Made by a program: the position numbers and the translations under genes
The notes under the pieces: generated by a model
Seen by the model: only the letters and a program-made list of their open reading frames with translations
Database searches by the model: none
What the model was told of the DNA's origin: nothing
In this document: positions 2,718 through 35,318 of the stretch, in pieces
How the letters are laid out: every line of letters begins with the position of its first letter
Numbering within the stretch: the first letter of the stretch is position 1
Assembly: GCA_022710715.1 (NCBI GenBank)
Contig: JAKLGJ010000003.1
Span: forward strand, 25,083 to 89,082
DNA length: 64,000 nt
Source: Candidatus Omnitrophota bacterium
Lineage (GTDB): Bacteria; Omnitrophota; Gorgyraeia; Gygaellales; Profunditerraquicolaceae
Direction: 5' to 3'

Positions 2718-3290
2718 TTAATCCGTATAATTCGCCACCAGCGTGGCGGTCTCCACCTGGGAATTCAGGCGGCCGTTAATACCGCCGTACATCGCGTCAT
2801 CTTCCCCGCTATCCAGGACGCCGTTAAGATTCTGGTCTTCCCCGAATACGCGGTTGCGACTGCGAAACGCGACTGCCGCGCGGACATTTTTCAGATCGGT
2901 AAACGCCGTCGCGCCAATAGTGGCGTTGCTGATCTCCAGTACGCCGACCATAGTGCCGGAAGAGAACGTAGAGCCGTTATAAAAACACTGATTCGAACAA
3001 CTGCACGCGCAGGTGCAGGCCGAAACATTGCTTAAAGAACAATCCGGACAGCCGGTTGCCGGCGTCGCGCACGTATTTAACCGGTTGAACGGGGTAGCTT
3101 TCACCTCTTCGATCTTGGACATAAGCAATCCGTTGGACCGGGCAAGATCGCGGGAAAGATCGGTCATGGTCAGCATATTAGTATACGTCAGCAGCATTCC
3201 CGACAACGCGATCGCCAGGATGACGGCGGCGATCATCACCTCCACCAGCGTAAACCCTTTTTCCGATCGTGCAGCCTTTTTTCGGCGCAT
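2718..3290 (-). CDS. prepilin-type minor pilin (PilV-like)
   Basis: KGFTLVEVMIAAVILAIALSG is a prepilin N-terminus. Cys-rich C-terminal half. Confidence 0.65.
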   Translation of the reverse strand: MRRKKAARSEKGFTLVEVMIAAVILAIALSGMLLTYTNMLTMTDLSRDLARSNGLLMSKIEEVKATPFNRLNTCATPATGCPDCSLSNVSACTCACSCSNQCFYNGSTFSSGTMVGVLEISNATIGATAFTDLKNVRAAVAFRSRNRVFGEDQNLNGVLDSGEDDAMYGGINGRLNSQVETATLVANYTD

Positions 3291-3808: not shown

Positions 3809-4279
3809 TTACTCAATCGGATCCTCGGCTGAACCGTCCCAGGGAACAGCAGTCTGGGCTCCGGGATCAGCTGCGCGGAGAACTCCCGATGTGTCGACAT
3901 AGAAGCACCTGACGCCGGTTGTACCCCAGGTGACCGGACAGGATGAAGCCGTGAATCCCTGCCAGTTGCCTGCGCCTACCGTAGCTTCGTCAATACCGGT
4001 AAGTTCGAAGTTGTAACCCTGTTTGGTACCGGCAGCCAGAATACTGTCGATGTACGGAGGTGTATCGTCGTCAAGAATAGCCAGATTGGTCGGGTATCCC
4101 TGATGCGAAGAACGATACGTATGAGCGCCGGATGAGATCGTCTTGAGTGCTGCGATCGCTGCCGATTCATTCGCCGCCAAACGGGCTCTAAGCAAGTTGG
4201 GAATTGCTATAGCCGCCAGCAACGCGATGATCGCCACAACGATCATGATTTCCACGAGCGTAAAACCTTTCCTATTCAT
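3809..4279 (-). CDS. major type IV pilin / type II secretion pseudopilin G-like protein
   Basis: MNRKGFTLVEIMIVVAIIALLAAIAIPNLLRARLAANESAAIAALK is a canonical PilA/PulG N-terminus. Confidence 0.8.
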   Translation of the reverse strand: MNRKGFTLVEIMIVVAIIALLAAIAIPNLLRARLAANESAAIAALKTISSGAHTYRSSHQGYPTNLAILDDDTPPYIDSILAAGTKQGYNFELTGIDEATVGAGNWQGFTASSCPVTWGTTGVRCFYVDTSGVLRAADPGAQTAVPWDGSAEDPIE

Positions 4280-4436: not shown

Positions 4437-4582
4437 GGAAAATATGTTTGGTTTCAACAACTTAAGATATAAATTTGTTTAATTTCCTCAACACTGCTCC
4501 CCTCCGGTCAAACCGGAGGGGTTCGCTGGAAACAAAACGGCCTTAAGGTAAAACCTTAAGGCCATCTTAATAGTTTTACCCT

Positions 4583-4720
4583 CTTTGGCGGCTAGGCTAT
4601 CCGTATGCGCGAATACCAGGCGCATATGGATCCTTCGGCTTTGCTCCGTAGCCGGCCTTCGGCCGGATACGAACCCGCCAGTCTACGGCGGGGTCGCCCG
4701 ATTACTCGGGTTTTGCCTTT
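4583..4720 (+). ncRNA. candidate structured small RNA (unidentified family)
   Basis: GC-rich multi-hairpin region in a 650-bp gene-free gap. It has two cUUCGg tetraloop hairpins that are stable only in the plus-strand sense, an 11-bp stem AUCCGUAUGCG/CGCAUAUGGAU, and a closing helix UGGCGG...CCGCCA. It ends in a terminator-like CCCGAUUACUCGGG followed by UUUUGCCUUU. Confidence 0.35.
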
Positions 4721-4933
4721 ATCAGTAGGATAAAGATCTTTCTAGCTAAGCATAGCACATTCTACCCCGTTTGTCAAAGATCGAACCTCTTGATCGTCGA
4801 GCTTTAAACAAAAGAAAACATTCGCTACTCATGGTGAGAGGGTCAGTCTCAAACAAAGCATACCATAATTTTAGCCCTTTGTCAACTCATTGTTGATTTT
4901 TTATCAATTGCGATTAGAATACTTCAGGCGGGT

Positions 4934-9484: not shown

Positions 9485-9622
9485 TGGAGTTAAAGTATTC
9501 TTATCGAAAAGGGCTCCGGGGGGATTACTGGGGGCCAAAGCCACGGATCGGTAAGCATTATTCTTTTATGCGTTTCGATAACCGGGTTGCCGAAATAAGA
9601 ATCAGCGGCGACGCGGTTTTTT
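9485..9622 (+). promoter_or_regulatory. conserved structured 5' leader with intrinsic terminator (possible divergent c-di-GMP-I/GEMM-like riboswitch)
   Basis: Contains CAAAGCCACGGAUCGGUAAG and UUUCGAUAACCGGGUUGCC...GGCGACGCGGUUUUUU. Both blocks are shared with the two minus-strand leaders at 31.7 and 34.2 kb. It ends 40 nt before the ATG at 9664. Confidence 0.45.
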
Positions 9623-9663
9623 CATTTCTTACACAACAGCTCATCTACCTGGGGGGGGGAACG

Positions 9664-12600
9664 ATGCTGACACGCTGCCTGAAATTTCTTTCTGCTTTCC
9701 TTATTATCTTCAATCTGGCAATTCCGGCAAGTTACGCTGATTTCGCGGTAGCGCCGTATAAACGCTATCCGCTGGCTTCAGGCCGCTCCGCTGCGCCGGC
9801 AACTCCAACTACTCAACAACCGGCCAACGCTGTGACACCTGCGGTAACTCCCGCTGCGACCCCGGCGCAATCAACGCCGGCAGCGCGGACAAGTACGCCT
9901 TTTGTGCGCTCAACCCCCTTGCAGACGAAACAGCCCGCGACTACGACCGCTCCGGCGGCTTCAAAATCGTCCACTTCACCGGCGCCGGTTGTAACTCCCG
10001 CGACGCCCCCGGCGCAGTCAACGCCGGCAGTGCGAAGAACCACTCCATTCGTGCGCTCCACTCCCTTGCAGACTAAACAACCCGCGACCACGGCCGCTCC
10101 GACTACTCAACAACCGTCCAGCACTCCTGCGCCTGCGGCAACTTCGGCACAGACAACTCCGGTAGCACGGACAAGCACGCCTTTTGTGCGCTCGACTCCC
10201 TTGCAGACGAAACAGCCCGCTACCACGGCCGCTCCGGCAGCCCAACAGCCAGCGGTGACTCCGGCGCAGACAGTTCCGGCGGTTACTCCCGCAGCAGCGC
10301 CAGCCACACCGGCTGTCGCGGCTAATCCGGTATCCCTGATCCCCGCTTATCAAAACCCGACTCCGGCATTCGGAACCAGACATACAACTGCTGCAACTAC
10401 AGCTACCAGCCTGGCGCAGATGAGCCCGGAGCAACAGGCCAGTCATATCAACTCTTTATCCGGATATGACGCCGCCCAGATGCTTGCCCGGCTCGACCAG
10501 AACCAGCTCAAACAGGTCATGGCCCAGCCCGGACTGAAGACCGACCTGCTTTCTAAAGTCAGCCCGTTCATTACCCCTGCTTCTTTTGCCGGGCTCACTC
10601 AATCCATGAACGCCGAGCAGATTTCCGCAGCCCTTTCCGCTGCGCCGCTGAACGCGGAAACTTACGCAAAAATACTGGAAAACTGCCCCCAGGCCGCGAC
10701 TGGAATGAAAACATTGATCAAGTCAGACCCGAATAAAGCTTTAAGCGCCATTACGGGGATGAGCGTAAACAAACAGGGCGAAGTATTCAGCCAGCTCGAC
10801 AGCAAAGATATCGCCGCACTGTTCAATGCCCGGACTTCCGACGGCTCGGACCCCAGGGACAACTCCGATCTTTTCGCCCGGCTTTCCCCGGACCAGCAAA
10901 ACAGCGTGTTGAAGGAATTGAGCGCGGTTAACCCGGCGCTGGCCCAGAAATACCTGTACGCGACCACCCAGTCCCTTACCAGAGGCACCAGCGAAGACGC
11001 AAAAGCCAAGCTTTCCGGCGACAGCGCATCTTCCGTTGACCATCCCGGATTGCTGGTAAACGATATGAACCCGGATCAACTTAAAGCGCTTCTGGGCGTG
11101 TGTCAGCCCGGAACTCTCGGCGCGATCCTGGCGGACAGCAAACTGAATACGGCGACCCGCAAACGCATCCTGGATATCATGAAAACCAGCTTCGAGAAAG
11201 CCGGGAATATCGAACAGACCGTGCTCTCTGCCAATGCCAACAAAGTTCCGCAGGACCCGCAACAGTACCTTTTCGATCTGGCCTGGACAACCTACTCCAC
11301 GCTCGATCCGGAAGGCGCTAAGGAAGATTTGAACTCGATCCAGTCCGCGGTAACCGGCTACAACCAGCGCCGCCAGGAATCGGTATTGAAACAGATCGCC
11401 GGAATGGATACCTCACGGGCAGGCGAGCTTCTGGCGCAAACCGACATTTCGGTAGCCCAGACCGCGCAGTTGATCATGTCCGCCTCCGGAGAGCAGAAAG
11501 CGAAGCTGCTGTCCGCGCTGGAACAATCCGATCCGGAGAAGGCAAAAGAAACCAAAACCATGATCAGCCGGATCGAGGAAAACAACCGCAAAGCCGCGCA
11601 GATAGAGAAAAACAACGAACAGGTGCGCAGCACCCTGAAGAAAGTCGGGCCGTCACCGGTAGCCGACTATTTCATCCGGAAAGGCAGTTCCGAACAGACT
11701 ATCGGGGAGCTGGCCCTGATGGACCAGAAATTCATCGACCAGACCCTGTCTTTGATCGAAAAGAAATCGCCCAAGACTGCCGCGCAGGTGCGCAAAGACC
11801 TGGCCGCATACCGGCAAAAAGCTTCTGCTTCGACCACCGTAGATCAACACCTGGACAATCTGGTGAAAGGCTCGGCGCAGGATGCGGCGCTTTTCATTGC
11901 CGCGCAGACTCCGGCAAACGCTAAGAATATTCTTTCGGAACTGGCCAAACGCAACGCATCGTTTGCGGAAGCAACCCTGGCGCAGCTCAAGAAGGTTGAC
12001 TACCAGCTTGCCGACGAAACCCAGAAAAAAGACACCCGCCGCCTGACCAAGAACGAACTGGGGCAACCCATCATTATCGACGGAGAGAACGTCTATCAAG
12101 TGGAAGAGCTTTCCGACGGCACCATCCTCACCCACAGGAGCACCGGAACGGTCAACAACACGAATCTCGGTAAGATCAACGATTCTCCGCAGAATACCGA
12201 GCTGGCCGCGGGCGTTAAGCCAGTCGATATCGACCTGCAGAAGCCCAGGATATACCTTACCGGACAAACCGCCACCGATAACAGCGTAACGATCACCCCG
12301 GGTTCCGGCAGCTCTACTCCCAAGGACGCCTGGTACGATCCGGTGAACAAGCGCTACGGCGACAGCACCAGCATCGGCAGCACGCCCAAGCCGGAATGGA
12401 ATATCAAACGGGAAATAACCTATGACGGGATCGGCAAGCTGACCTTCAAAGGTCAGCTTGACCCGCAAACAGGCGCGCCCCTCGACGGAACAGAGATGAC
12501 CGACGAGAAAGGGCACATCTTCACCGCGGTCACCAAAACCAGCCCGACTTCAGACAAACAGGTCGCCATCCCCGTGCAGACAACCTACCATGCCGGGGAC

Positions 12601-13023
12601 AATCTAACTCTGACTGACGGAACCGAATTGACTTTCAAGAGAGATACCCGGGTGAACCCGGGAATCGGAGAACTGCCGGCAGGCACGGAATTAACCGACA
12701 AAAAAGGCCGGCTGTTCGCTGTGGCGCCGGTCACCAATCCGGCCACAGGCAACCAGGTCTTCACCTACCAGCAGATAAGCTATAACGCCGGAGACACCGT
12801 TGAACTGAAAGACGGGACCACATTGACCTTCAAACAGGACACGATAGCCGACCCGAACACCCTGAAGTTCAAAACCAATGCAATACTCACGGATAAGGAC
12901 GGAAACTACTGGGAAGCCTTCGGAACTGTGACCAGCTTGCAATTCAAACAAATCAATCCAGCGACAGTTGAAAAAGACTGGAAGGTGTTCGACCCGGCAA
13001 CCGGACGTTTAGCCGGTAAATAA
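9664..13023 (+). CDS. giant secreted repeat protein (Pro/Thr/Ala-rich tandem repeats, helical middle, C-terminal beta repeats)
   Basis: The start is moved to ATG 9664 (MLTRCLKFLSAFLIIFNLAIPASYA signal peptide, G-rich SD). The track's longer N-terminus translates the upstream leader RNA. The protein has 3.5 tandem repeats of about 45 aa (STPFVRSTPLQTKQPATTAAP). At the C-terminus LTLTDGTELTFKRDT and VELKDGTTLTFKQDT are duplicated. Confidence 0.6.
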   Translation: MLTRCLKFLSAFLIIFNLAIPASYADFAVAPYKRYPLASGRSAAPATPTTQQPANAVTPAVTPAATPAQSTPAARTSTPFVRSTPLQTKQPATTTAPAASKSSTSPAPVVTPATPPAQSTPAVRRTTPFVRSTPLQTKQPATTAAPTTQQPSSTPAPAATSAQTTPVARTSTPFVRSTPLQTKQPATTAAPAAQQPAVTPAQTVPAVTPAAAPATPAVAANPVSLIPAYQNPTPAFGTRHTTAATTATSLAQMSPEQQASHINSLSGYDAAQMLARLDQNQLKQVMAQPGLKTDLLSKVSPFITPASFAGLTQSMNAEQISAALSAAPLNAETYAKILENCPQAATGMKTLIKSDPNKALSAITGMSVNKQGEVFSQLDSKDIAALFNARTSDGSDPRDNSDLFARLSPDQQNSVLKELSAVNPALAQKYLYATTQSLTRGTSEDAKAKLSGDSASSVDHPGLLVNDMNPDQLKALLGVCQPGTLGAILADSKLNTATRKRILDIMKTSFEKAGNIEQTVLSANANKVPQDPQQYLFDLAWTTYSTLDPEGAKEDLNSIQSAVTGYNQRRQESVLKQIAGMDTSRAGELLAQTDISVAQTAQLIMSASGEQKAKLLSALEQSDPEKAKETKTMISRIEENNRKAAQIEKNNEQVRSTLKKVGPSPVADYFIRKGSSEQTIGELALMDQKFIDQTLSLIEKKSPKTAAQVRKDLAAYRQKASASTTVDQHLDNLVKGSAQDAALFIAAQTPANAKNILSELAKRNASFAEATLAQLKKVDYQLADETQKKDTRRLTKNELGQPIIIDGENVYQVEELSDGTILTHRSTGTVNNTNLGKINDSPQNTELAAGVKPVDIDLQKPRIYLTGQTATDNSVTITPGSGSSTPKDAWYDPVNKRYGDSTSIGSTPKPEWNIKREITYDGIGKLTFKGQLDPQTGAPLDGTEMTDEKGHIFTAVTKTSPTSDKQVAIPVQTTYHAGDNLTLTDGTELTFKRDTRVNPGIGELPAGTELTDKKGRLFAVAPVTNPATGNQVFTYQQISYNAGDTVELKDGTTLTFKQDTIADPNTLKFKTNAILTDKDGNYWEAFGTVTSLQFKQINPATVEKDWKVFDPATGRLAGK
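9840..10270. repeat. imperfect tandem DNA repeats (about 135-147 bp period) inside the giant secreted protein gene
   Basis: cttgcagac(g/t)aaaca(g/a)cccgc recurs at 9918, 10065 and 10200. Confidence 0.7.
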
Positions 13024-14004
13024 TTCCACTTTATTGCGCCCGGATTTTTTGGCCTGATACAACGCTTTGTCCGCGTTATCCAGCAATCCCGCCAGCTCTT
13101 TACCCTGCTGCGGGAACAATGAGATCCCGACACTCACCGTGACGTCTATCCGCTCGTCATATGCCACTACCGGTTTGCTCTGTATGCCCGCGCGGATACG
13201 CTCCGCCACGAACAACGCCCCCTCTTTATTGGTTTCGGTCAAGAGAATGGCGAACTCCTCCCCCCCGTATTTACCGATAAGATCGACCTGACGGATGTGC
13301 GCTTTGATCCGCTGCGCGACTTCCTTGAGTATCGCGTCCCCTACCAGATGGCCGTAATGATCGTTGATATCCTTGAAATGGTCGACATCAAGCATCAAAC
13401 AGGCGCAGGCATAATTAAAAGCCCTGGAACGGGATAATTCCTCCGACGAACGCCCCCACCAGTACCTGCGCGCCGATACCTGGGTCAGTCCGTCGATAGT
13501 GGCCATCTCCTGCACTTTCTGATACAGAATGGCGCGTTTCATTCCCAGCAGGAATTGCTGGGAAAGAATGGTGAATTTATCCCGGTCTTCCCGGCGTACC
13601 GGCGCGACGACCAGATAATTCATCAGCTGGTCTTCCAGCCGCAGAGGCACTATCGCGTATTCCTTGAACGCCGCCAGATCGGCGTCCGCGGGAACGAACC
13701 GGCAGTCTTCGACAGCCAGCATTTTGTGCAGCTTCTCCTTAAAAACCGAAAACACCTTATCCTGATCGAGATGGCTGCACAATTCCCGGGTGATATCGTA
13801 TAAGGTCATGGTCTGCTCCAGCCGGTTGCGTAAATCCATGTTCTGCCCGGTAAGCTGATCGTATTCCTGCAGCAGCCGCTGATAATCAGCCTGACGCAGC
13901 TTCCCTTCGCGCTGCGCCGACAGCACGCGCCTGGCGAAAAACCGCTCCAGCCTGAAATAGAGAAGCATGGTGAGCAAAACAAGGATCGCAATCTGGATAA
14001 ACAT
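13009..14004 (-). CDS. membrane-anchored diguanylate cyclase (GGDEF domain)
   Basis: N-terminal TM helix. C-terminal motifs are RYGGEEFAILL (GGEEF active site) and DVDHFKDINDHYGH. Confidence 0.8.
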   Translation of the reverse strand: MFIQIAILVLLTMLLYFRLERFFARRVLSAQREGKLRQADYQRLLQEYDQLTGQNMDLRNRLEQTMTLYDITRELCSHLDQDKVFSVFKEKLHKMLAVEDCRFVPADADLAAFKEYAIVPLRLEDQLMNYLVVAPVRREDRDKFTILSQQFLLGMKRAILYQKVQEMATIDGLTQVSARRYWWGRSSEELSRSRAFNYACACLMLDVDHFKDINDHYGHLVGDAILKEVAQRIKAHIRQVDLIGKYGGEEFAILLTETNKEGALFVAERIRAGIQSKPVVAYDERIDVTVSVGISLFPQQGKELAGLLDNADKALYQAKKSGRNKVELFTG

Positions 14005-14005
14005 G

Positions 14006-15178
14006 CTAAGCTCCGATCACCAAATTCCTGCCCTTACTTTTGGCTTCATACAGGGCGCGGTCCGCTTTCATAAGCAACTCGATCTCTTCCTGCGCGTCAT
14101 GGGGAAATTCCGCTACACCCACGGAGATAGTGCACTGATTACGCTGCCTGCGCAATAAGAGCTCCCTGGCGGCAACCGCTTTGCGCAGGTTTTCCGCGAT
14201 CTTCAACCCGGTATTCTTATCGGTATCCGGCAGCAATACGCAAAACTCTTCTCCGCCGAACCGGCAGACTACGGCGGGTATCTGCGCGAGAGCCTCGCTC
14301 ACCGCTTTACTGATGGTTACCAGCACGATATCCCCCGCGGCGTGACCGAACGTATCGTTGAGTTTCTTGAAATTATCGATATCCAGCATCAGCAGGCAGA
14401 GCGAGCGCGGATGCCGGTACGTTCTTCGGCATTCGGTCTTAAGCATCTCCAGAAAATACCCTTTATTGAACAACCCGGTCAATCCGTCATGAATGGCCAT
14501 GGTCCGCGCGTCCTTGTACAGCTGCGCATTCTCCAGAGAAACCGCTCCCAGCTCCGCGATGGTCATGAAGAAACGCAGATCGTCCTGGGCGAAGAAACGC
14601 TTGTGCTGATGCTCAAGACGGATCAAACCAATGACCTTTCCCCCGCTGATCAGCGGCACTTCGATCAACGAAGCGATCGGGCGCGGGTCGGCGCGGCGCA
14701 CTTTATCAGCGTCGAAGCGGAAATCCTTGGAGATATCCTCGACCAGCAGCGGACTGGCGTGGCGCAGCACCCAGTGATCGAAACTGTCCCCCTCCTTGGC
14801 TTTGATCACGATCGCGCGTTCGTCTTTAAGTGTCTTGAAGAGGACTAACTTCTGGGTTGAACCGTCGAGCAGATATAACAGGCACTCTCCCTGATTATCG
14901 GCCAGCAGGAAGAACGAAATTGCGCAGAGCTGCTCGGCAACCGCATCCAGGGAAAGCTCCTGGTTCAGCAGTTCGATGATACGTTTAAGATTTTCGTAGC
15001 GTTCGATGCGCCGCTGCAGGAACTGGGTGTTCGCGCGCTCCTGCTGATTGGATGCCGACTGAACATTGATGTTCTCCTGAACGCCGTCACCGTCGAGTTT
15101 GAGCTTATAGAGTTGCCGGGAATTTCGCTGGGCGAGCCAGATGACCGCGGGGAGATTGCCCAGATAAAAAACCGCCAA
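14006..15178 (-). CDS. GAF-domain diguanylate cyclase (GGDEF)
   Basis: TM N-terminus, central GAF-like region, then RFGGEEFCVLL and DIDNFKKLNDTFGH. Confidence 0.8.
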   Translation of the reverse strand: MAVFYLGNLPAVIWLAQRNSRQLYKLKLDGDGVQENINVQSASNQQERANTQFLQRRIERYENLKRIIELLNQELSLDAVAEQLCAISFFLLADNQGECLLYLLDGSTQKLVLFKTLKDERAIVIKAKEGDSFDHWVLRHASPLLVEDISKDFRFDADKVRRADPRPIASLIEVPLISGGKVIGLIRLEHQHKRFFAQDDLRFFMTIAELGAVSLENAQLYKDARTMAIHDGLTGLFNKGYFLEMLKTECRRTYRHPRSLCLLMLDIDNFKKLNDTFGHAAGDIVLVTISKAVSEALAQIPAVVCRFGGEEFCVLLPDTDKNTGLKIAENLRKAVAARELLLRRQRNQCTISVGVAEFPHDAQEEIELLMKADRALYEAKSKGRNLVIGA

Positions 15179-26933: not shown

Positions 26934-28196
26934 CTAAACGGACTTTATTTCTAAGTCCTTTTCGGAGAGAACTTTATTAAAAAGATGTTTGGGGAGATTT
27001 AATCGAATCTGAACGCCTTTTTGCAGATACTCGACCTCGATCACTTTACCTTGAGTATAAAACCAGTGCACCAGATCCATCCGACCATGAGGCACGACTA
27101 TTTCCAGAGACACCATTTTGGCGGAGAAATGCTTCTGGATCTCCTCCAGCAGCCTGTCGATATGCGCCCCGTTGAGCGCGCTGATGGGAATCGCCTGCTT
27201 GAAATCCTCCTGCAGCCGCAGCAACCAGGCCTGGTCAGCCAGCAGATCTATCTTATTCAGCGCGGTTATCATCGGCTTATCCGCGTAGCCCAACTCCACC
27301 AGCACATTCATCACCGCGGCATAATGCTCATACACCTTAGGATGGTTGACGTCGAGCACATGAATAAGCAGATCGGATTGAGCCACTTCTTCCAGCGTTG
27401 CCTTAAACGCTTCGATCAAACCATGCGGCAGATTATGCAGAAAACCGACCGTGTCCGAGATGACTATCTGGTCGCCGTTAGGCAGCTTGAAACTTTTAGA
27501 AAGCGGATCCAGCGTGGTAAATAAACTCCTGCTTACTTCCTGCCCGGCGTCCGTCAATTTATTCAGCAGCGTCGACTTGCCGGCGCTGGTATAACCTACC
27601 AGAGAAACCGTGGACACCGCGTTTTCCTTGCGCCGCTTGCGCATCAACTCGCGATGCTGCCGCACGCCCCGGAGATCTTCCTTCAACCGTTCGATGCGCT
27701 GCCGGATCCTGCGCCGATCGATCTCCAGCTTCTGCTCGCCGGGACCGCGGGTCCCGATGCCGCCGCCCTGACGGGACAGGATGAGCCCCTTACCCACCAG
27801 CCTGGGCAGTAAATATTGCAGTTGCGCCAGCTCTACCTGCATTTTGCCTTCCGGACTCTTAGCGTGCTGCGCAAAAATATCCAGGATAAGCTGGGTGCGG
27901 TCGATAGTCTTGCAGCCGATCGCTTCTTCCAGATTACGCTGCTGCGTGCCGGAAAGGTCGTGGCTGAAAATCACCGTATCCGCGACCGTCTGGTCGACAA
28001 GCATGCGGATCTCTTCGGCCTTCCCCTTTCCTATAAGCAGGCCGGGCGTGGGACGATCCACCATACATTCCATAGCGCCGGCAATCTCCACGCCGGTAGA
28101 CCGGGCCAGCTCGTCCAGCTCGACAGACAGATCTTCCAGAGACCAGCTGCTCTTCTCCGCTTTCAGCTTCATCGTAACCAGCAATGCTCTTTCCAT
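26934..28196 (-). CDS. hflX: GTPase HflX
   Basis: HflX N-domain, then G-domain motifs GYTSAGKSTLLN, DTVGF, NKID. Start set at the MERALLV Met. Confidence 0.8.
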   Translation of the reverse strand: MERALLVTMKLKAEKSSWSLEDLSVELDELARSTGVEIAGAMECMVDRPTPGLLIGKGKAEEIRMLVDQTVADTVIFSHDLSGTQQRNLEEAIGCKTIDRTQLILDIFAQHAKSPEGKMQVELAQLQYLLPRLVGKGLILSRQGGGIGTRGPGEQKLEIDRRRIRQRIERLKEDLRGVRQHRELMRKRRKENAVSTVSLVGYTSAGKSTLLNKLTDAGQEVSRSLFTTLDPLSKSFKLPNGDQIVISDTVGFLHNLPHGLIEAFKATLEEVAQSDLLIHVLDVNHPKVYEHYAAVMNVLVELGYADKPMITALNKIDLLADQAWLLRLQEDFKQAIPISALNGAHIDRLLEEIQKHFSAKMVSLEIVVPHGRMDLVHWFYTQGKVIEVEYLQKGVQIRLNLPKHLFNKVLSEKDLEIKSV

Positions 28197-28283
28197 GAAG
28201 ATATTATAGCACAAAAAAGTCCCGGGGGGCAGCGAACTGCTCTCCGGGACTTTGAGCAAATGTTTGCGTCGTTAACCGGGCTG

Positions 28284-29537
28284 CTAATTGCCGTTCTGCG
28301 GCCAGACCACAGGTTCCCATTTATTTTCGTTGGTCAGGCCGAGTAGAACATTATTTATCACCTTGTACTGATTGCGGAACTCTTCCCGCATTCCGCCGGG
28401 ACGATACTCCACCGTGTCATCGGCGCTCTTGAACACATCGAAGTATCCGTTGTCGTCGAGATCTATGGCGCCGACGCCGCCATACAGATGATAACCCGCA
28501 TTCCAGTTTATCGCATCCGCCGCGGGCTTGCTCACGGCTGCCGGAACTTCGATGACTGCCTCGCCTGCGTCCGACACAGCATACTCCCCTGCGGTGCGGG
28601 GATTGAAGTTCTCGTTGGGCAGATCGTAGTACGTCCCGGAACCGTCAGGATCCACGGCGATCACCGAGCCCGTGGCGATCATATAATCGTGCGAATTAAG
28701 GACTGCGTTCATATCGCCGTATTTTATCTGCGCCGCCGGATACTGCTTGCCGATGGTATCGAGTATTGCCTTAGCGTCGTCCGGCTGCATCGAATTCAGG
28801 ATATCGTAGGCCTGATCGAGCTGCATGTCTTTCGGATTAGCCAGGATCTGAATTGCCAGGTCCATTCCTCCGCTTGTCGCCTGGCTTTTGTAAATCCCGG
28901 TCATTACCGTCCCCGCCTGTGCGGGGTCCATCGTACCCAGAACCCGGGCGACCTGGCCCACGTCCACTTTGGCCATCGCGCCCATCACCTGCGTCACTTG
29001 AGCGGTATCCATCTGATTGAATATCTGCGCTTTTTCGCCGGCATTAAGATAGGTGCTGCCCATCACCGAGGACAGCTTACCCGTATCCATCTGATTGCCC
29101 ACTATTGCCGCCGCCACCGCAGGCATATTCTTTATGGTATAAGCGGCGCGGTCGGTAGGCAGCGCATTGAATGCGCCCGCAACCAGCGCGGACTTGTTAT
29201 CGGCAACCAGCTGCGTGCTCACCAGGGCATTGACTTTGGTGTCGAGGGTAACCATCAGCCTGGCGGTATCGCCCGCAGTAGTAAAAGCGCTGGCTTTCTG
29301 ATAGGCGTTGCCTGCAGCCAGCTGTTGGCCCGAGCTTAAGGAAGCAGGCGAGGCAAACGTCTTGCTGCCGGTAGACACCTGCTGCTTGCCGCCGCTATCG
29401 ACAGCCTGGCCGGTTTCGGAGCGGGTCCAGACCCCGTTATTCCAGTAATTATAGGCCCAGGCATTCCCGCCTGCGCTTGCCGCTGCCAGGCCGCAGAGCA
29501 CCGCGCAGAGCAATACTACCGAACTGTACTTTTTCAT
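28284..29537 (-). CDS. secreted hypothetical protein
   Basis: Signal peptide MKKYSSVVLLCAVLCGLAAASA. Lies 57 bp downstream of the 29595 gene, so probably co-transcribed. Confidence 0.5.
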   Translation of the reverse strand: MKKYSSVVLLCAVLCGLAAASAGGNAWAYNYWNNGVWTRSETGQAVDSGGKQQVSTGSKTFASPASLSSGQQLAAGNAYQKASAFTTAGDTARLMVTLDTKVNALVSTQLVADNKSALVAGAFNALPTDRAAYTIKNMPAVAAAIVGNQMDTGKLSSVMGSTYLNAGEKAQIFNQMDTAQVTQVMGAMAKVDVGQVARVLGTMDPAQAGTVMTGIYKSQATSGGMDLAIQILANPKDMQLDQAYDILNSMQPDDAKAILDTIGKQYPAAQIKYGDMNAVLNSHDYMIATGSVIAVDPDGSGTYYDLPNENFNPRTAGEYAVSDAGEAVIEVPAAVSKPAADAINWNAGYHLYGGVGAIDLDDNGYFDVFKSADDTVEYRPGGMREEFRNQYKVINNVLLGLTNENKWEPVVWPQNGN

Positions 29538-29594
29538 AACTTCTCCTCTATCGCTGATATACCTGTCGAACTCCTAACCTTAAAGCCGGTAGTA

Positions 29595-31547
29595 TCAACT
29601 CGCTGGATTCAAATCTTTAATATTCACCCTGTAGGGTTCAGCCGGATGATACTGATTCGGCGTCCCGTCTTGATTGTGGATCGAGTAAAACGCATCCTGC
29701 GCCACTTTATTCCATCCGATCAGGGAAGCTTCCCAATTCAACGCGGCATTCCCCATCCCGACACCGACAACCTGCCCCTCGTCATTGACAAACTCCACAT
29801 CGTTGATACCTATAAGACAGGTTGTGTTGATCTGATCCATCGGGAAACCGATCGCGCCTTCTGCCTTATTGAGATCATGTATCCATTGATAGGGATTCGA
29901 CCATTGGCCGAACGGACTGATCGCAGAATTGGTGCCGCAGAGAATGCTGGCGGCGCGGATTTCCGCAGGCGTTTGGCTCAAGGAAGTACCGGTCAGCAAG
30001 GTATTATACCCATTACCCGAGGCAATCTCGAAGTTGCCGTTAAGCAAAGCGACGGGATCAATCCCCCGCATCGCGACATCGCCGGGAGAATCCACATACG
30101 TGACCGGGGTTATATTCCCGGAGGCCATCTCATTTTCGGATAGGTTCTTGGCCGCTACCTGAAACTGCGTACCTGCAGACACATCCTGAATAAGAACAGT
30201 TCCGGTGCCCGGAGTGGTGTAATCCAGCCGCAGGTTGCCTTGCGCATCGGCCGTTGTCGTTCCCATCACCTGTGGCCCAGTACCCTTGCCGTTATCAAAA
30301 CTGACCACAACCTGTCCGCCGGGGGTCAATCCCGCGGCCACGACATTGTAGTTATCCAACCCCGCGCTCAAACAAAGGATATTCGCATTATCTGCCGATT
30401 GGGAAACGCCATTGAGACCTGGCGCCGCCGCCAGGGCATTACCTCCCTGCAAAGTCTGGCTATTGGCTCCCGGAACAACCGTTATCTGTTGCGGCGTGCC
30501 GGTATTGGGATCCTGGCCTGCATATACGGGCGCGAGTTCAGTCATACCTCCCGCTGTGGCAGTCGTGCCGAAAGTCGGGGCGGAAAGAGTGAGCCCGGCA
30601 TTGGCAAAATCCGCCTGGCCGATGCTAAATCCCGGATTCCCGTTATTCGCGCCCGCGGTGACCCCGACCACCTGCCCGTTCTCGAAACTAACGGTTAAAG
30701 GAGCGCCGACAGTGATCCCCAGGCCGTTCTGTCCGGTAGTGGTCTCATTATTGTACATTGACTGGCCCAGTCCTCCGGGAAGCATTGCCTGTACCCCATC
30801 CCCGTAGGAGAATGTTCCGCCGCCGGTATAGCTGGGCGTCGACAGTTGCGCGGAAACCTGGCCGGGAGCGGTCTGTGTGATGGTAGCGAAGGTATTACCG
30901 GTAGTCGGATTGGATAAAGTGATCGAGGTGATATCCCCGTTAGCGGCATAATTGAAATTGCCCGACGAACCCGTGGGCGCGTTCAAATTGCCCATCGTGG
31001 CGGAAATGTTCATGCTGAATGTCGTGCCGCCAGGAGCAGTGGCCGTAGGAGCAGAGGTAAAGCTATTATTCCCGGTGAGCGTGGCTGAAAAAGAACCTGC
31101 GCTGGCTGGGGTGAAACCGAGCAATGAGGAAACGTTGCCCAGCGTACCGGATGACGGCATGGTCAACGAAGAAGAAAATGATCCTGGATTACTGCTGATT
31201 CCGGGCGAATTCATGGAAGAGCTGGAGAAGCTGGGCACGCTCATTCCGGACATCGTTGAAGAAAGGGTAGGATTATTCGCGGCAAAGGAAATTCGCGCGT
31301 CAGCCGCGTGCTGCGAAGCCGAAGGACCGGTCCCCAATCCGGGACTGCCGGAAAAAGAAGCGCTGCTTCCCGGGCTGCTGAAGCTTGGAGATGAACCGCC
31401 GGACATCAGATTACCGCTGGTATCATGCGTCCCGTTGGAAGCAAAAGGACAGGGATCCGAAGCATCCCATACAGCGGCATGAACAGGAACCGCAAACACA
31501 CAAAACAAAACACTTGCTACCAACAACAAACACGCTTTGTTTCTCAT
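29595..31547 (-). CDS. secreted Ser/Gly/Thr-rich large surface protein (adhesin-like)
   Basis: Start at MRNKACLLLVASVLFCVFAVPVHA (signal peptide). Very long low-complexity S/G/T/N tracts. Confidence 0.55.
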   Translation of the reverse strand: MRNKACLLLVASVLFCVFAVPVHAAVWDASDPCPFASNGTHDTSGNLMSGGSSPSFSSPGSSASFSGSPGLGTGPSASQHAADARISFAANNPTLSSTMSGMSVPSFSSSSMNSPGISSNPGSFSSSLTMPSSGTLGNVSSLLGFTPASAGSFSATLTGNNSFTSAPTATAPGGTTFSMNISATMGNLNAPTGSSGNFNYAANGDITSITLSNPTTGNTFATITQTAPGQVSAQLSTPSYTGGGTFSYGDGVQAMLPGGLGQSMYNNETTTGQNGLGITVGAPLTVSFENGQVVGVTAGANNGNPGFSIGQADFANAGLTLSAPTFGTTATAGGMTELAPVYAGQDPNTGTPQQITVVPGANSQTLQGGNALAAAPGLNGVSQSADNANILCLSAGLDNYNVVAAGLTPGGQVVVSFDNGKGTGPQVMGTTTADAQGNLRLDYTTPGTGTVLIQDVSAGTQFQVAAKNLSENEMASGNITPVTYVDSPGDVAMRGIDPVALLNGNFEIASGNGYNTLLTGTSLSQTPAEIRAASILCGTNSAISPFGQWSNPYQWIHDLNKAEGAIGFPMDQINTTCLIGINDVEFVNDEGQVVGVGMGNAALNWEASLIGWNKVAQDAFYSIHNQDGTPNQYHPAEPYRVNIKDLNPAS

Positions 31548-31654
31548 ACAGCCTCCTCGTGGTTTAATCGTTATTCGCATTAGACCTCGAGTAAGGACGG
31601 CCGTTCCCCATCAAACTAAATAAGCCTGATCCCCCCCACAAACGTCTTACTCCC

Positions 31655-31862
31655 CCTTAAAACAAAACAACCGAGTTGCACTATCCAGGCAACCCGGCTA
31701 TCGAATATAATTTATTTCAGGGTTTTTAAAAGACCTTAAAATGAACTCTAACTAATTTCTCCCGTATTTCCCCTGAAACAAACTGCGTGTTACTTTCGAC
31801 CCGTGGCTTTCCGTCCCCGCCTTACGACGGGTTTGGCTTTGTCGTCACAAGTATGCCATATC
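31655..31862 (-). promoter_or_regulatory. c-di-GMP-I (GEMM)-like riboswitch candidate with terminator expression platform
   Basis: The minus-strand RNA reads GACGACAAAGCCAAACCCGUCGUAAGGCGGGGACGGAAAGCCACGGGUCGAAAG. It aligns position by position with the Vc2 GEMM aptamer: GGGCAAACC / hairpin with GNRA loop / GGGACGCAAAGCCUCCGG. It is followed by a 9-bp terminator stem CCGGGUUGC / GCAACUCGG and UUGUUUUGUUUU at 31659-31697. Confidence 0.55.
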
Positions 31863-31950
31863 AACTTCAGAAATTCAAGTCTTTGTTCCCGACTTTTGCT
31901 TCCGTTTACGCTACCAAGATCAAAATCAGGCTCGAACACGCTTATCAATG

Positions 31951-31983
31951 GTCCTGGAGGACAGTTACCTGTCCTCCAGGACC
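31951..31983. promoter_or_regulatory. perfect 14-bp-arm palindrome downstream of the 32064 gene
   Basis: GTCCTGGAGGACAG TTAC CTGTCCTCCAGGAC. No U tract follows. Confidence 0.4.
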
Positions 31984-32063
31984 TTGACCGAACATTCTCT
32001 CGAACGTGCCTGATTGTCTGTTTGCTGCTTTACTTCTCCCCCTCCCTTGTTGTGGTGGTGCGG

Positions 32064-34052
32064 TTAATTCAAAGGTGAAATGCCGATCGTGCTGTACTGG
32101 CCGCCGTAATAGCCGGCCTCAATGATATTATTGTGGTCTCTGACCCGGTCATTCACCACGCCCGAGCCCGAACCCGGTATCATCATACCCATCTCGTCGT
32201 AATGCGCAGTATTGATGGTGAAGAACGGATCCATTACGATATAGTCCTGCAGCTTAGCCGCATCCATCATGCTCCCGGGAAGCGCATTAAAGGAAGCCTG
32301 CATATCCACTTTATCTTCCATAGACAGGCCAAATCCCTTTAAAGCCTCGGTGCTGACATAACCGCAGAACACCTCATCCCAGCGATTATCCACGTAGGTC
32401 AAACCGCCGCTGGGGGTGGTGAACAAGGATCCCTGGCCGATGACCTGCGACCAATTGTTGATCGATACCGGGCCGTAGAGCAAGTTGCTCATATGCTCCT
32501 GGGCCGAGCCGGAAAGATTGGTCACCACCTGCGAGGTAACCTGACCCTGCCCGTACGTTTCCAGAGTAGAGTCGGCAGGAGACACGCCTTTGATATCGTA
32601 GGTCTTGCCGTCGGCAGTCTTCAGATTGTCCACAAAATTCTCGGCAGTGCTGACTTCGTCGATGGAGCGAAAAGCGACCACGCGCTGATTGCCGGCCATA
32701 TCCTCAACCACAGCCCAGACATTATTGCCATAATGCTTGGTCTCGCCCTGATTATTGGGCTGATCTTTCCAGATTCCCGGCAAGGCGCTGATCACCACGC
32801 CATCGGCGGTGGCAAACCACTTCTCCGGGGAAGAGCCGAATATCTGCGCGCCGTCCTCATCATGGAAAGAAAGCACCTTGCTGACTCCGGACAGATACAG
32901 CGTGCCCTGATTGTCGACAATGGTCAAAGGCGCCAATCCCTGCGGCGCTGCCGAAGTCTGCGCGACTGGCTGTTCCTGATCAGAAGCCAGAAGCTGACCT
33001 TGAGCCTGTTCCTGGCCTGAAACTGCCTCTTTGCTGCCAGCCATCGGATCAATGCCTGTTGCCGCCAGGGAACCGGCGATCGGCGTTGCCGCCTGCAACA
33101 GCGCGCTGTCTTCGCCGAAATTCCTGCCGTCAACTACCATCTGGACCAGCTTGCCGTCCTTATAATTCATGGTGAGATCCGAACCGTCTTTAATACCCAG
33201 GGCAGTGGCCACTTCCGACTTATCACCGATGCCTGAAAAGATCATGTATTCGTTATCGTTCATCTTCATCCTGCCGCCTTCGGTAGCTTCGGCTTTCCAG
33301 GTGGAAACCACGCTACCTGACTGGTCGCGGCCGATCGCGCCAACAGACTTGAGATCGCTATTGACAAATGAGATCTCCACGAAGTTATTCCCGCCCACGC
33401 TTGCGCCTTCGGCAGCGCTCATCTGAACGAACACCTTGGTCCCTTCAGTCACTTTTGCCGGGAACGCTCCGTCGAGATTGAAGGTGGCGCTCTGGTTGTT
33501 GAAATCGAAAGTTATCTGATTGGCGCCGTTCCAGACGCCGGTGGCGCCCAGAATGCCGGTGTTGCTGTTATAGAACAACCCCTGGCCGTTGGTAATCGTA
33601 TCGGGACGGGAAGTAGAAATGGAAAAAGTGGGATTATTGAAGAAGCTTCCCACCGCGTTGGAAGAGCTAAGAGCTATGGATTGGGTGCCGAAAGAAGAAC
33701 TGGTGATGGGATTAGTGGTTACGGAAGGAGTCGTACCCCATTGAGCCCAGATGTTGTGATCCGGACCGCCGTAACTCCACATGCCCGTACCGCTGACCAC
33801 CGGACTGGCGCTGATAGCTGCCGCAGGAGTTGACCAGCTGCCGCCTCCTCCGCCGCCGTCAATACTCACTCCGCCGCCGCCAAAAACGCTGCCGCCCATG
33901 GTTTCCGACATACCTGAAGGTGCCAGATCTGCCTGATACGAACCCGGCGCGGACTCCGTAACCCAGCTCGCGCAGACCGGCATACACAGCGGAACAGTCA
34001 AAAGAACAACTGCGAAAAACATACTTCCTGAAGCCAAGGAATGAAATCTCAT
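32064..34052 (-). CDS. large secreted hypothetical protein
   Basis: Signal peptide MRFHSLASGSMFFAVVLLTVPLCMPVCASW. Gly-rich N-terminus. Preceded by the second riboswitch-like leader. Confidence 0.55.
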   Translation of the reverse strand: MRFHSLASGSMFFAVVLLTVPLCMPVCASWVTESAPGSYQADLAPSGMSETMGGSVFGGGGVSIDGGGGGGSWSTPAAAISASPVVSGTGMWSYGGPDHNIWAQWGTTPSVTTNPITSSSFGTQSIALSSSNAVGSFFNNPTFSISTSRPDTITNGQGLFYNSNTGILGATGVWNGANQITFDFNNQSATFNLDGAFPAKVTEGTKVFVQMSAAEGASVGGNNFVEISFVNSDLKSVGAIGRDQSGSVVSTWKAEATEGGRMKMNDNEYMIFSGIGDKSEVATALGIKDGSDLTMNYKDGKLVQMVVDGRNFGEDSALLQAATPIAGSLAATGIDPMAGSKEAVSGQEQAQGQLLASDQEQPVAQTSAAPQGLAPLTIVDNQGTLYLSGVSKVLSFHDEDGAQIFGSSPEKWFATADGVVISALPGIWKDQPNNQGETKHYGNNVWAVVEDMAGNQRVVAFRSIDEVSTAENFVDNLKTADGKTYDIKGVSPADSTLETYGQGQVTSQVVTNLSGSAQEHMSNLLYGPVSINNWSQVIGQGSLFTTPSGGLTYVDNRWDEVFCGYVSTEALKGFGLSMEDKVDMQASFNALPGSMMDAAKLQDYIVMDPFFTINTAHYDEMGMMIPGSGSGVVNDRVRDHNNIIEAGYYGGQYSTIGISPLN

Positions 34053-34117
34053 CTTCCCCCTCCCCGTATTTAAGGGCCCCCCACTTATCCCTTGCGCTCC
34101 GGATTGAGCGACTTAGT

Positions 34118-34370
34118 AGACAACAAAAAAACCGAGTTGCGCTTGTTCGGCAACCCGGCTATCGAATAGATTGTTTGAGGGTTTTAAAAAGAGTTTAAGA
34201 TCAACTCAAAAAAAATTTCTGTTCCCCATTCCCCCAAAACAAATTGTCAGTTACTTTCGACCCGTGGCTTTCCTTCGGCGTGTTCATGCTGCGTTTCAAC
34301 CGAACTCCCGTCTGGGAGGTCCCCGCCTTACGACGAGTTTGGCTTTGTCGTTCAAAGTATGCCATACTTA
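34118..34370 (-). promoter_or_regulatory. second copy of the GEMM-like leader (with ~45-nt hairpin insertion) plus conserved terminator
   Basis: Matches copy 1 (...UAUGGCAUACUU..GACGACAAAGCCAAAC.CGUCGUAAGGCGGGGAC..GGAAAGCCACGGGUCGAAAGUAAC...) except for an inserted CUCCCAGACGGGAGUUCGG...CCGAA block. The terminator CCGGGUUGC / GCAACUCGG followed by UUUUUUUG is at 34121-34158. Confidence 0.45.
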
Positions 34371-34394
34371 ACCGAGGTTTTCAAGAGTCAAAAG

Positions 34395-35318
34395 CTAACT
34401 TTTGTTTCTTTTTACAATTTTTTGCAAAATCACACTTTTAGCAATACCCGGCCCGACCTTCACCCATACAATCCGCCTGTCCTTACGGAACCAGGTCATC
34501 TGCCGGCGGGCGTAGCGGCGGGTATTGCGCTGCATCAATTCTTTTGCGCCCTGCTCATCCAGCCCGCCCTCAAGATAACTTTTAACCTCCTGTATGCCGA
34601 TAGCGCAGGCAGCAGTCCGGCTAAGCTTTTTCTTCAAAAGCCTCTTCACTTCCTTGACCAGCCCCTGATCGAACATTTCCTCTACCCGCCGGTTGATCCG
34701 CTCATACAAAATGTCGCGATCCATATCCAGGCCGATGATCCGGACATCATATTCTTTATCCAATCCTTTGCGGGTTTGCTGCAGCCGGGAGATGGGAACT
34801 CCGGCTACCGCAAAAACCTCCAACGCCCGCACAATACGCTTGGTATCATTGGGATGGATTTTTCGCGCCGCCGGCGGATCGACCTCTTGCAGTCGAGCGT
34901 GCAACGCCGCGCTGCCCTGCTCCCGGGCCTGCTTGAACAACCGCGCCCGCACGCGGGGATCTTCGGTCTTGACTTCAAATATCCCATCCACCACGATCGA
35001 CATATACAATCCGCTGCCTCCCACGAACAACGGGATGCGGCCGAGGTTGATGATCGTTTTGATCGCTTTGAGCGCTCGGCGGCGGTATTCGGAAACATTG
35101 AATTCATCTTCGGGACTGACTATGCCCAGCAGATGATGCGCAACAGCAGCGCGCTGCGCGGCCGTGGGTTTCGAGCTTAAAATATCCATGCCTTTATACA
35201 CCTGCATGGAATCGCAGGAAATGATCTGCGCGCCGATCTTTTTCGCCAGCGGAATGGAAAGACCGGTTTTGCCGACCGCAGTCGGTCCGACCAGAAATAT
35301 GACTTTCGCGCGTTTCAT
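34395..35318 (-). CDS. miaA: tRNA dimethylallyltransferase
   Basis: VIFLVGPTAVGKTGLSIPLAKKIGAQIISCDSMQVYKGMDI is the MiaA P-loop and signature. Confidence 0.85.
   Translation of the reverse strand: MKRAKVIFLVGPTAVGKTGLSIPLAKKIGAQIISCDSMQVYKGMDILSSKPTAAQRAAVAHHLLGIVSPEDEFNVSEYRRRALKAIKTIINLGRIPLFVGGSGLYMSIVVDGIFEVKTEDPRVRARLFKQAREQGSAALHARLQEVDPPAARKIHPNDTKRIVRALEVFAVAGVPISRLQQTRKGLDKEYDVRIIGLDMDRDILYERINRRVEEMFDQGLVKEVKRLLKKKLSRTAACAIGIQEVKSYLEGGLDEQGAKELMQRNTRRYARRQMTWFRKDRRIVWVKVGPGIAKSVILQKIVKRNKS

Follow-up and report, generated by a model that had tools for sequence, protein, structure and literature searches.

A 64,000-nt stretch of Candidatus Omnitrophota bacterium contig JAKLGJ010000003.1 (NCBI GenBank assembly GCA_022710715.1, positions 25,083 to 89,082 of the forward strand; hereafter the window, numbered from its first nucleotide) was analysed around a leader RNA encoded on its minus strand at 31846..31684. 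The leader stands in front of two genes and ends in an intrinsic terminator. Signal-peptide-like N-termini were found on both open reading frames (ORFs), as a preliminary description made from the letters alone had stated, and a strong terminator at 28250-28213 closes the operon ahead of hflX. Judged from its sequence, the leader contains a genuine member of the cyclic di-GMP-I (c-di-GMP-I, GEMM-I) riboswitch class in a Candidatus Omnitrophota genome. Feature coordinates are collected in Table 1.

The entire window was searched with Rfam 15 cmscan at curated gathering (GA) thresholds. The sole match displayed above GA was 31846..31684 on the minus strand, assigned to RF03167 (c-di-GMP-I-GGC, clan CL00126) at 61.0 bits against a GA of 59, with an E value of 6e-12 and coverage of the full model (positions 1-80). 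A second match of the same clan passed its own GA and was hidden by clan competition, its family and score not being readable; at E ≤ 10, two hidden same-clan matches were present, also without a readable identity. A covariance-model (CM) score at or above GA places the aptamer in CL00126, and the resemblance to c-di-GMP-I is far beyond chance. The c-di-GMP-II model (RF01786) gave no match in the entire window at E ≤ 5. The class named in the preliminary description was thereby upheld. The blocks it had quoted (ACAAAG-CC-AAACC, CGUC-GUAA-GGCG with its GNRA loop, and GGGAC-GG-AAAGCCACGG) were all located on the minus strand; the 3' half of the aptamer, about 100 nt downstream, had been overlooked.

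All pairs of P2 and P3 in an explicit pair list were standard. P2 is closed by C31836-G31811 and C31835-G31812, followed by an AAA/GAC internal loop and a 6-bp stem with a GUAA tetraloop of the GNRA type at its apex (31825-31822). In the CM alignment, the ligand-contact triple G20/A47/C92 (Vibrio cholerae Vc2 numbering) is canonical and corresponds to G31837, directly 5' of P2, A31810, directly 3' of P2, and C31689. Roles for these nucleotides and for the C44-G83 pair have been described (PMC4744006, PMC5888326, PMC6140456), and the latter interhelical pair is universally conserved (PMC4744006). Both of its partners have equivalents, C31813 within GGGAC on the 3' side of P2 and G31698 in the bulged AG of P3; the pairing itself is predicted. 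Within the P3 3' strand, GAUAGCCGGGUUGCC agrees with the family consensus. The 3' half (P3 3' strand, C92 equivalent and P1 3' strand) occupies 31705-31684, past the 89-nt insertion in P3, and overlaps the terminator. When 31846-31684 was folded alone, P2 and the full P3 made up both the minimum free energy (MFE) structure and the centroid (-48.5 kcal/mol, z -2.8). P1 has a single Watson-Crick pair, G31843-C31688, which is followed by a C.U mismatch.

The P1/P2/P3 three-way junction, the P2 internal loop and tetraloop, the three contact nucleotides and both nucleotides of the interhelical pair are shared with RF01051 and its representative Vc2 (PDB 3IRW). The aptamer differs in the flip of the G21:C46-type pair to C:G, in the P3 extension, in the near absence of P1 and in the absence from P3 of the 11-nt tetraloop receptor (CUAAG...UAUG; CUAAgg...cuAuG in the RF01051 consensus). 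This receptor does not define the whole class, and GEMM representatives without it are known. The flip, reported in the preliminary description, is real and is scored by the model as a compatible pair. GTDB genomes contain at least 119 stretches that match the pattern AAAGCCAAACC-N8-20-GGGACGGAAAGCC, which combines the flipped pair with A47.

The top-scoring model, RF03167, shares with the aptamer the element AgCcAcGG...AGCCggGcUGCc and a short P3 that lacks the receptor in the consensus. The two consensus sequences part at position 47, reading ...GACGC-A-AAgCc... in RF01051 and ...GACGC-G-AAgCc... in RF03167; the aptamer reads GACGG-A-AA and has A in place of the RF03167-defining G. In Weinberg et al. 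2017, 'GGC' is said to denote positions 20/47/92. Twenty pattern-selected GTDB loci (L006-L124 set) were also scanned, and RF03167 scored best in 22 of 24 aptamer matches (59-75 bits, at or above its gathering cutoff). A47 was present in all 20 aptamers, which had been chosen by a pattern that itself includes A47. Since A47 aptamers also score best on RF03167, the label reflects the receptor-less P3 and not the binding site, and the assignment of the window aptamer looks like the outcome of model competition. Many canonical receptor-less aptamers are probably mislabelled as the GGC variant by best-hit Rfam annotation.

These data bear on the ligand. The same fold might instead serve 3',3'-cGAMP or the ligand of the orphan 'GGC' variant class, as the preference for RF03167 over RF01051 would suggest. 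The pattern-bearing stretches, and with them most close relatives, come mostly from Thermodesulfobacteriota or 'delta proteobacteria' metagenome-assembled genomes (MAGs), Geobacter and its relatives among them; cGAMP-sensing GEMM-Ib riboswitches have been described in Geobacter (PMC6140456, PMC7266159), and GGDEF enzymes can be Hypr cGAMP synthases (PMC6456294). The GEMM-Ib example of Geobacter, Gs1761, shares the scaffold of the window aptamer. However, GEMM-Ib has A20, and in Vc2, which has G20, cGAMP is disfavoured by orders of magnitude (PMC6140456); the position-20 equivalent here, G31837, is not the A of the c-GAMP riboswitches. Position 47 is likewise not the RF03167-consensus G, and the RF03167 label is common to A47 aptamers. 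Another ligand is accordingly considered unlikely, and c-di-GMP remains the preferred one.

Orthologous leaders were absent from the collections searched, and homologous aptamers were used instead. In a MAFFT alignment of 48 GTDB relatives, 91.6% of cells were paired under the stated structure, compared with 28-50% in a control in which the 3' partners were slid by 1-3 columns. Many double-sided changes were present in the inner four P2 pairs and in the distal P3 pairs. The pattern used to choose the relatives holds the 5' core constant, and the rule for placing the P3 3' strand required seven basal pairs, so that unbiased support comes from the P2 inner helix, the distal P3 and P1 alone. The inner P2 pairs covary strongly; P1 amounts to about 2 pairs in the 48 relatives, of which 15 do not form the second. 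Aptamers of the relatives mostly precede signal-peptide proteins, and PEP-CTERM motifs were found in three of ten tested.

The poor P1 raises the question of decay, in which the aptamer would no longer bind a ligand and the leader would be a constitutive attenuator. Besides the one-pair P1 with its C.U mismatch, 89 nt interrupt P3, orthologues that could show purifying selection are lacking, and, measured against the models, the other three GEMM-like leaders of the window show clear degeneration (24-31 bits). Such a relic is nevertheless improbable. Every nucleotide known for ligand contact or interhelical pairing has been preserved, pairing within P2 and P3 is perfect, the extension leaves the junction undisturbed, and P1 is equally short in many relatives.

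A functional c-di-GMP-I aptamer would here be coupled directly to the terminator. The latter, noted in the preliminary description and confirmed by folding, consists of a 5' arm (31699-31687), a loop (31686-31683), a 3' arm (31682-31669) and a U-tract (31668-31659); its stem (31699-31669) has an energy of about -21 kcal/mol, and a simple scanner overlooked it because of a bulge. Aptamer nucleotides make up the 5' arm: the G83 and C92 equivalents, those of all seven basal P3 pairs, and the 3' nucleotide of P1. The aptamer and the terminator are mutually exclusive because this arm is the aptamer 3' half.

Upstream, the putative -35 and extended -10 elements are spaced by 17 nt and would place the transcription start at approximately 31844-31842, at the first aptamer nucleotides. 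This promoter was not called by a consensus scanner (8 of 12 matches). Its arrangement is conserved in a second leader of the window, leader B, at about 34390-34361 (TTGAAA, 17 nt, TGgCATACT, with an identical 12-mer TATGGCATACTT). Successive transcript prefixes were folded from the predicted start. P2 formed immediately, the extension hairpin was present by 31706, and the complete aptamer was the MFE structure from 31691 to 31675. Once 31669 had been transcribed, the MFE structure changed to the terminator by opening of the basal P3 alone (-48.5 to -55.5 kcal/mol). For the entire leader, the terminator state was at -65.7 kcal/mol versus -58.6 with the aptamer enforced. An ON (anti-termination) design is indicated because a ligand-stabilised junction would keep the terminator from forming.

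The layout recurs. Among 64 GTDB relatives whose P3 3' strand could be placed, the terminator hairpin begins within 2 nt of the same AGCCGGGUUGCC in 36, and two further leaders in the window (A and B) have the same overlap of terminator and aptamer 3' strand. The preliminary description had proposed an OFF-type platform, in which binding of c-di-GMP would permit termination and silence the operon. Switches of that type are known within the c-di-GMP-I class, and a clean terminator does lie directly 3' of the conserved core, but this reading is very improbable, as the terminator 5' arm is the aptamer 3' strand with the G83 and C92 equivalents included, no separate anti-terminator for the ligand to disrupt was seen in the leader, prefix folding gave direct competition between aptamer and terminator, and the overlap is present in relatives.

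The element is therefore read as a c-di-GMP-I class transcriptional ON riboswitch that would allow read-through into the two secreted-protein genes when c-di-GMP is bound, with a probability of roughly 0.7. The family match, the canonical binding-site nucleotides, the mutually exclusive folds and the recurrence of the layout in relatives were computed. A weak sigma-70-type promoter would start the transcript at the aptamer. P2 would fold first and the long P3 extension second. On emergence of the 3' strand (31705-31688), P3 would close and complete the three-way junction, in which the G20, A47 and C92 equivalents would hold c-di-GMP. The terminator 3' arm would be made about 6-20 nt later. Without ligand, it would displace the seven basal P3 pairs and transcription would stop at 31668-31659; with c-di-GMP, the junction would be locked, the terminator 5' arm sequestered, and RNA polymerase would read through into the two genes. 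What we infer in this scheme is which ligand is bound, in which direction the operon is regulated in vivo, where the promoter lies and whatever part the 89-nt P3 extension may play.

Several points weigh against this scheme. The ligand would have very little time to bind ahead of terminator formation. P1 is minimal, as described above. The margin over GA is just 2 bits, a small value because the 88-nt insertion is penalised in the score, and the best-scoring model is the variant RF03167 and not RF01051. Conservation could not be followed in orthologous leaders, since all five contigs carrying the leader are 100% identical and the regulated genes lack homologues.

A functional parallel is Bc2 of Bacillus thuringiensis, a c-di-GMP-I switch whose ON action has been proven by experiment and which precedes the collagen adhesion protein Cap (PMC4933901). 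In both cases an aptamer is followed by an intrinsic terminator, the ligand prevents termination (here as a prediction) and the product is a surface or secreted protein. Bc2 differs in phylum and aptamer subtype, and was validated experimentally, whereas the window element is known from sequence. Bc2 regulates an adhesion protein; the proteins of the window operon are without a recognisable adhesin domain.

Table 1. Features of the riboswitch locus and related features elsewhere in the window (CM, covariance model).
Feature	Position	Strand	Basis
c-di-GMP-I class aptamer, entire match	31684..31846	-	Rfam RF03167
Putative -35 hexamer, TTGAAT	31873..31878	-	read by eye
Putative extended -10, TGgCATACT	31850..31858	-	by eye and paralogue conservation
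P2 (P1a) hairpin	31811..31836	-	CM alignment and pair list
P3 (P1b) 5' strand, AGCC-A-CGGGUCGAA	31795..31808	-	CM alignment, pair list, fold
89-nt AU-rich (31% GC) hairpin extension inserted at P3 tip	31706..31794	-	CM alignment, [88] insertion
P3 3' strand, UUCGAU-AG-CCGGGUU, with bulged G83 equivalent G31698	31691..31705	-	CM alignment, pair list
Junction G (G31690), C92 equivalent (C31689), P1 pair nucleotide (C31688)	31688..31690	-	CM alignment, pair list
Intrinsic terminator with U-tract	31659..31699	-	fold and prefix folding
5' untranslated spacer with ribosome-binding site GAGGAGG at 31558-31552	31548..31658	-	sequence reading
Gene 1, 650 aa, signal peptide MRNKACLLLVASVLFCVFAVPVHA, S/T/G-rich N-terminal third	29595..31547	-	ORF reading, homology searches
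Gene 2, 417 aa, signal peptide, weak MgtE_N-like helical region	28284..29537	-	ORF reading, Pfam
Strong intrinsic terminator closing the two-gene operon	28213..28250	-	-25 kcal/mol, z -4.9, then UUUUUU
Leader B, before 662-aa secreted ORF (32064-34052)	34352..34145	-	Rfam 31 bits, E 0.0025
Element A, upstream of 1119-aa signal-peptide ORF (9664-13023, faint MgtE_N)	9503..9595	+	RF03167 31 bits
Element C, upstream of type IV pilin-like genes	4726..4583	-	Rfam 24 bits, E 0.26
Adjacent pair of GGDEF diguanylate-cyclase genes, GAF sensor domain in the second	13009-14004 and 14006-15178	-	GGEEF motif

Three further GEMM-like elements, all below threshold, were located in the window by a permissive Rfam scan and by our own covariance model (R1), which agreed. 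R1 had been built from relatives with a short P3 and mis-aligned the 3' half of the window aptamer owing to the insertion, and it was of use for locating these three elements only. Leader B (region 34145-34393) shares the promoter, the core, the P3 extension of about 100 nt and the overlapping terminator with the main element and is 81% identical to it. Its P1 is better than that of the main element, and a 45-nt insertion (hairpin CUCCC-AGAC-GGGAG plus more) directly follows the C44 equivalent. On this likeness, leader B is evidently a paralogue of the main element. Element A (region 9503-9630) scored 32 bits on R1 and has a P3, a 3' strand and an overlapping terminator that are close to perfect. 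In its P2, a plain hairpin of 6 bp, both the AAA/GAC loop and the GNRA tetraloop are missing, the P3 bulge is AA and not AG, and C44 and G83 are lost jointly. Element C (region 4530-4777) has the canonical G:C orientation, a two-hairpin insertion of about 48 nt after GAC and a poorly paired P3 base. Its promoter is a good match (TTGACA-17-TATGCT with TG), and a separate strong terminator is present at approximately 4566-4535. The genes downstream (3809-4279 and 2718-3290) are type IV pilin-like and contain the N_methyl motif.

Leaders A, B and C strengthen the case for placing the main element in a c-di-GMP regulon of this organism, and the presence of two GGDEF cyclase genes in the same window (13009-15178) counts in favour of the c-di-GMP reading. 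The MAG of the organism was derived from anaerobic-digester metagenomes. A lineage-specific radiation of GEMM-I derivatives is conceivable though doubtful, with extra modules grafted onto the c-di-GMP-I scaffold: the P3 extension of about 100 nt (main element and B), hairpins of 45-48 nt after C44 (B and C), and a plain P2 with loss of C44/G83 (A). If such a radiation has taken place, some modules may tune kinetics, integrate a second input or reflect a changed ligand, and they would be new structural subclasses overlooked at Rfam thresholds.

The P3 extension folds as a 14-bp stem with a variable apex (-20.8 kcal/mol) that stacks on P3 and leaves the junction undisturbed. Its lower stem is retained in leader B (34152-34269), the insert of which is homologous and too diverged for short-word BLAST. 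By BLAST, no further copy of the insert was found in the window or in any fetched locus, and no Rfam family was found inside it. About 110 comparison aptamers were collected with our own covariance model in 100 GTDB loci. Full-length matches among them (model positions 1-79) span 59-122 nt, and the window aptamer spans 163-166 nt. When metagenomes were scanned for this core with a P3 interior of 88-118 nt, 106 stretches with 93 unique inserts were obtained. Tandem aptamers, an artefact of the pattern, accounted for 30 of these, and the other 63 are real long-P3 candidates belonging to several unrelated sequence families. The candidates scanned with Rfam were recognised as this aptamer, with scores of about 55-65 bits; of ten complete ones, six reached the 59-bit cutoff, and no known family was found within the inserts. 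Long P3 insertions recur and are a minority. The possibility of a mobile or repeated element was rejected, the insert having no BLAST copy in the window or the fetched loci and no Rfam family and being a singleton among the 63 metagenomic inserts. Most simply, the extension would be a tolerated, lineage-specific elongation of a variable loop.

Two observations on long P3 helices were made in the metagenomic material. About 40 distinct riboswitches of the same subclass (L125, L128, L132, L137, L140-L143, L145, L147-L149, L151, L154, L156, L160, L161, L164-L166, L168 ... L230) contain a conserved domain of 111-117 nt inside P3 without an Rfam match. An invariant GUGGCU box in this domain is complementary to the P3 5' strand AGCCAC, and all of these riboswitches have an ON-type overlapping terminator. 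The domain may act as a competitor helix built into the riboswitch, or else as a second module. Separately, metagenomic locus L146 (1780-2260, minus strand) has a riboswitch with a P2 nearly identical (CCCGUCGCAAGGCGGG) to that of the window aptamer and a 113-nt AU-rich P3 extension that is unrelated to the window insert. A good promoter and an overlapping terminator are present, followed by a 602-aa signal-peptide protein for which no kinship was found to the window proteins or to anything in the fetched loci. Within this sequence neighbourhood, expansion of P3 seems to be recurrent.

The operon had been called adhesin-like, a label that could not be established, no adhesin or Ig-like repeat domain being recognisable. 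No Pfam domain was found in the gene 1 product, exact-protein lookup returned nothing, a scan of genome contigs gave no relative, and a word-indexed search brought up nothing beyond the organism's own 472-aa gene call. This 472-aa gene is present on the five contigs found identical over the leader. Exhaustive HMMER searching of gene 1 gave two distant matches, to a LapA-repeat protein (E 8e-23) and an SdrD-type protein (E 2e-7). The LapA-repeat match is a faint resemblance, one stretch of about 40 residues summed over 12 near-identical repeats. An AlphaFold single-sequence model of the C-terminal 400 aa had a confidence (pLDDT) of 32 and was unusable. Searches with the gene 2 product returned no homologue. 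Gene 1 and the upstream 662-aa protein were considered as paralogues and rejected, and no similarity was found among the 650-, 417-, 662- and 1119-aa proteins. In public gene calls, gene 1 is shortened to 472 aa and an antisense ORF of 156-158 aa is placed over the S/T/G-rich N-terminal region (30952-31547). The 650-aa reading, whose ribosome-binding site and signal peptide directly follow the riboswitch, looks more plausible.

Other observations concern the surroundings of the leader. The spacer, 110 nt from terminator to start codon, contains several G-runs (GGGGG, GGGGGGG, GGGG) and a possible long-range helix, GAGUAAGACG / CGUCCUUACUC. A perfect 15-bp inverted repeat (GGUCCUGGAGGACAG-GUAA-CUGUCCUCCAGGACC) without a U-tract is located at 31945-31991, past the stop codon of the 662-aa ORF and ahead of the riboswitch promoter; it could be a U-tract-less terminator or a protein-binding palindrome. 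Three secreted ORFs without known relatives and two riboswitch leaders (28284-34400) are situated between miaA (34395-35318) and hflX (approximately 26934-28196). The gene located between these two in E. coli and in many other bacteria is hfq.

The element is of an already known kind, and the working of the c-di-GMP-I class is unchanged by it. What sets it apart is the great length of its P3 extension, a P1 that is nearly lacking, the phylum of its host and a cluster of divergent paralogues. For annotation, it illustrates that large insertions drive real aptamers to or under the gathering score, and that A47 aptamers with a receptor-less P3 are often labelled 'c-di-GMP-I-GGC' by best-hit Rfam assignment. 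The predicted direction of regulation is corrected from OFF to ON. A predicted c-di-GMP-responsive regulon is added to a poorly studied candidate phylum, and two, probably more, secreted proteins without known relatives would be tied to a c-di-GMP lifestyle switch, which would give a first functional handle on them.

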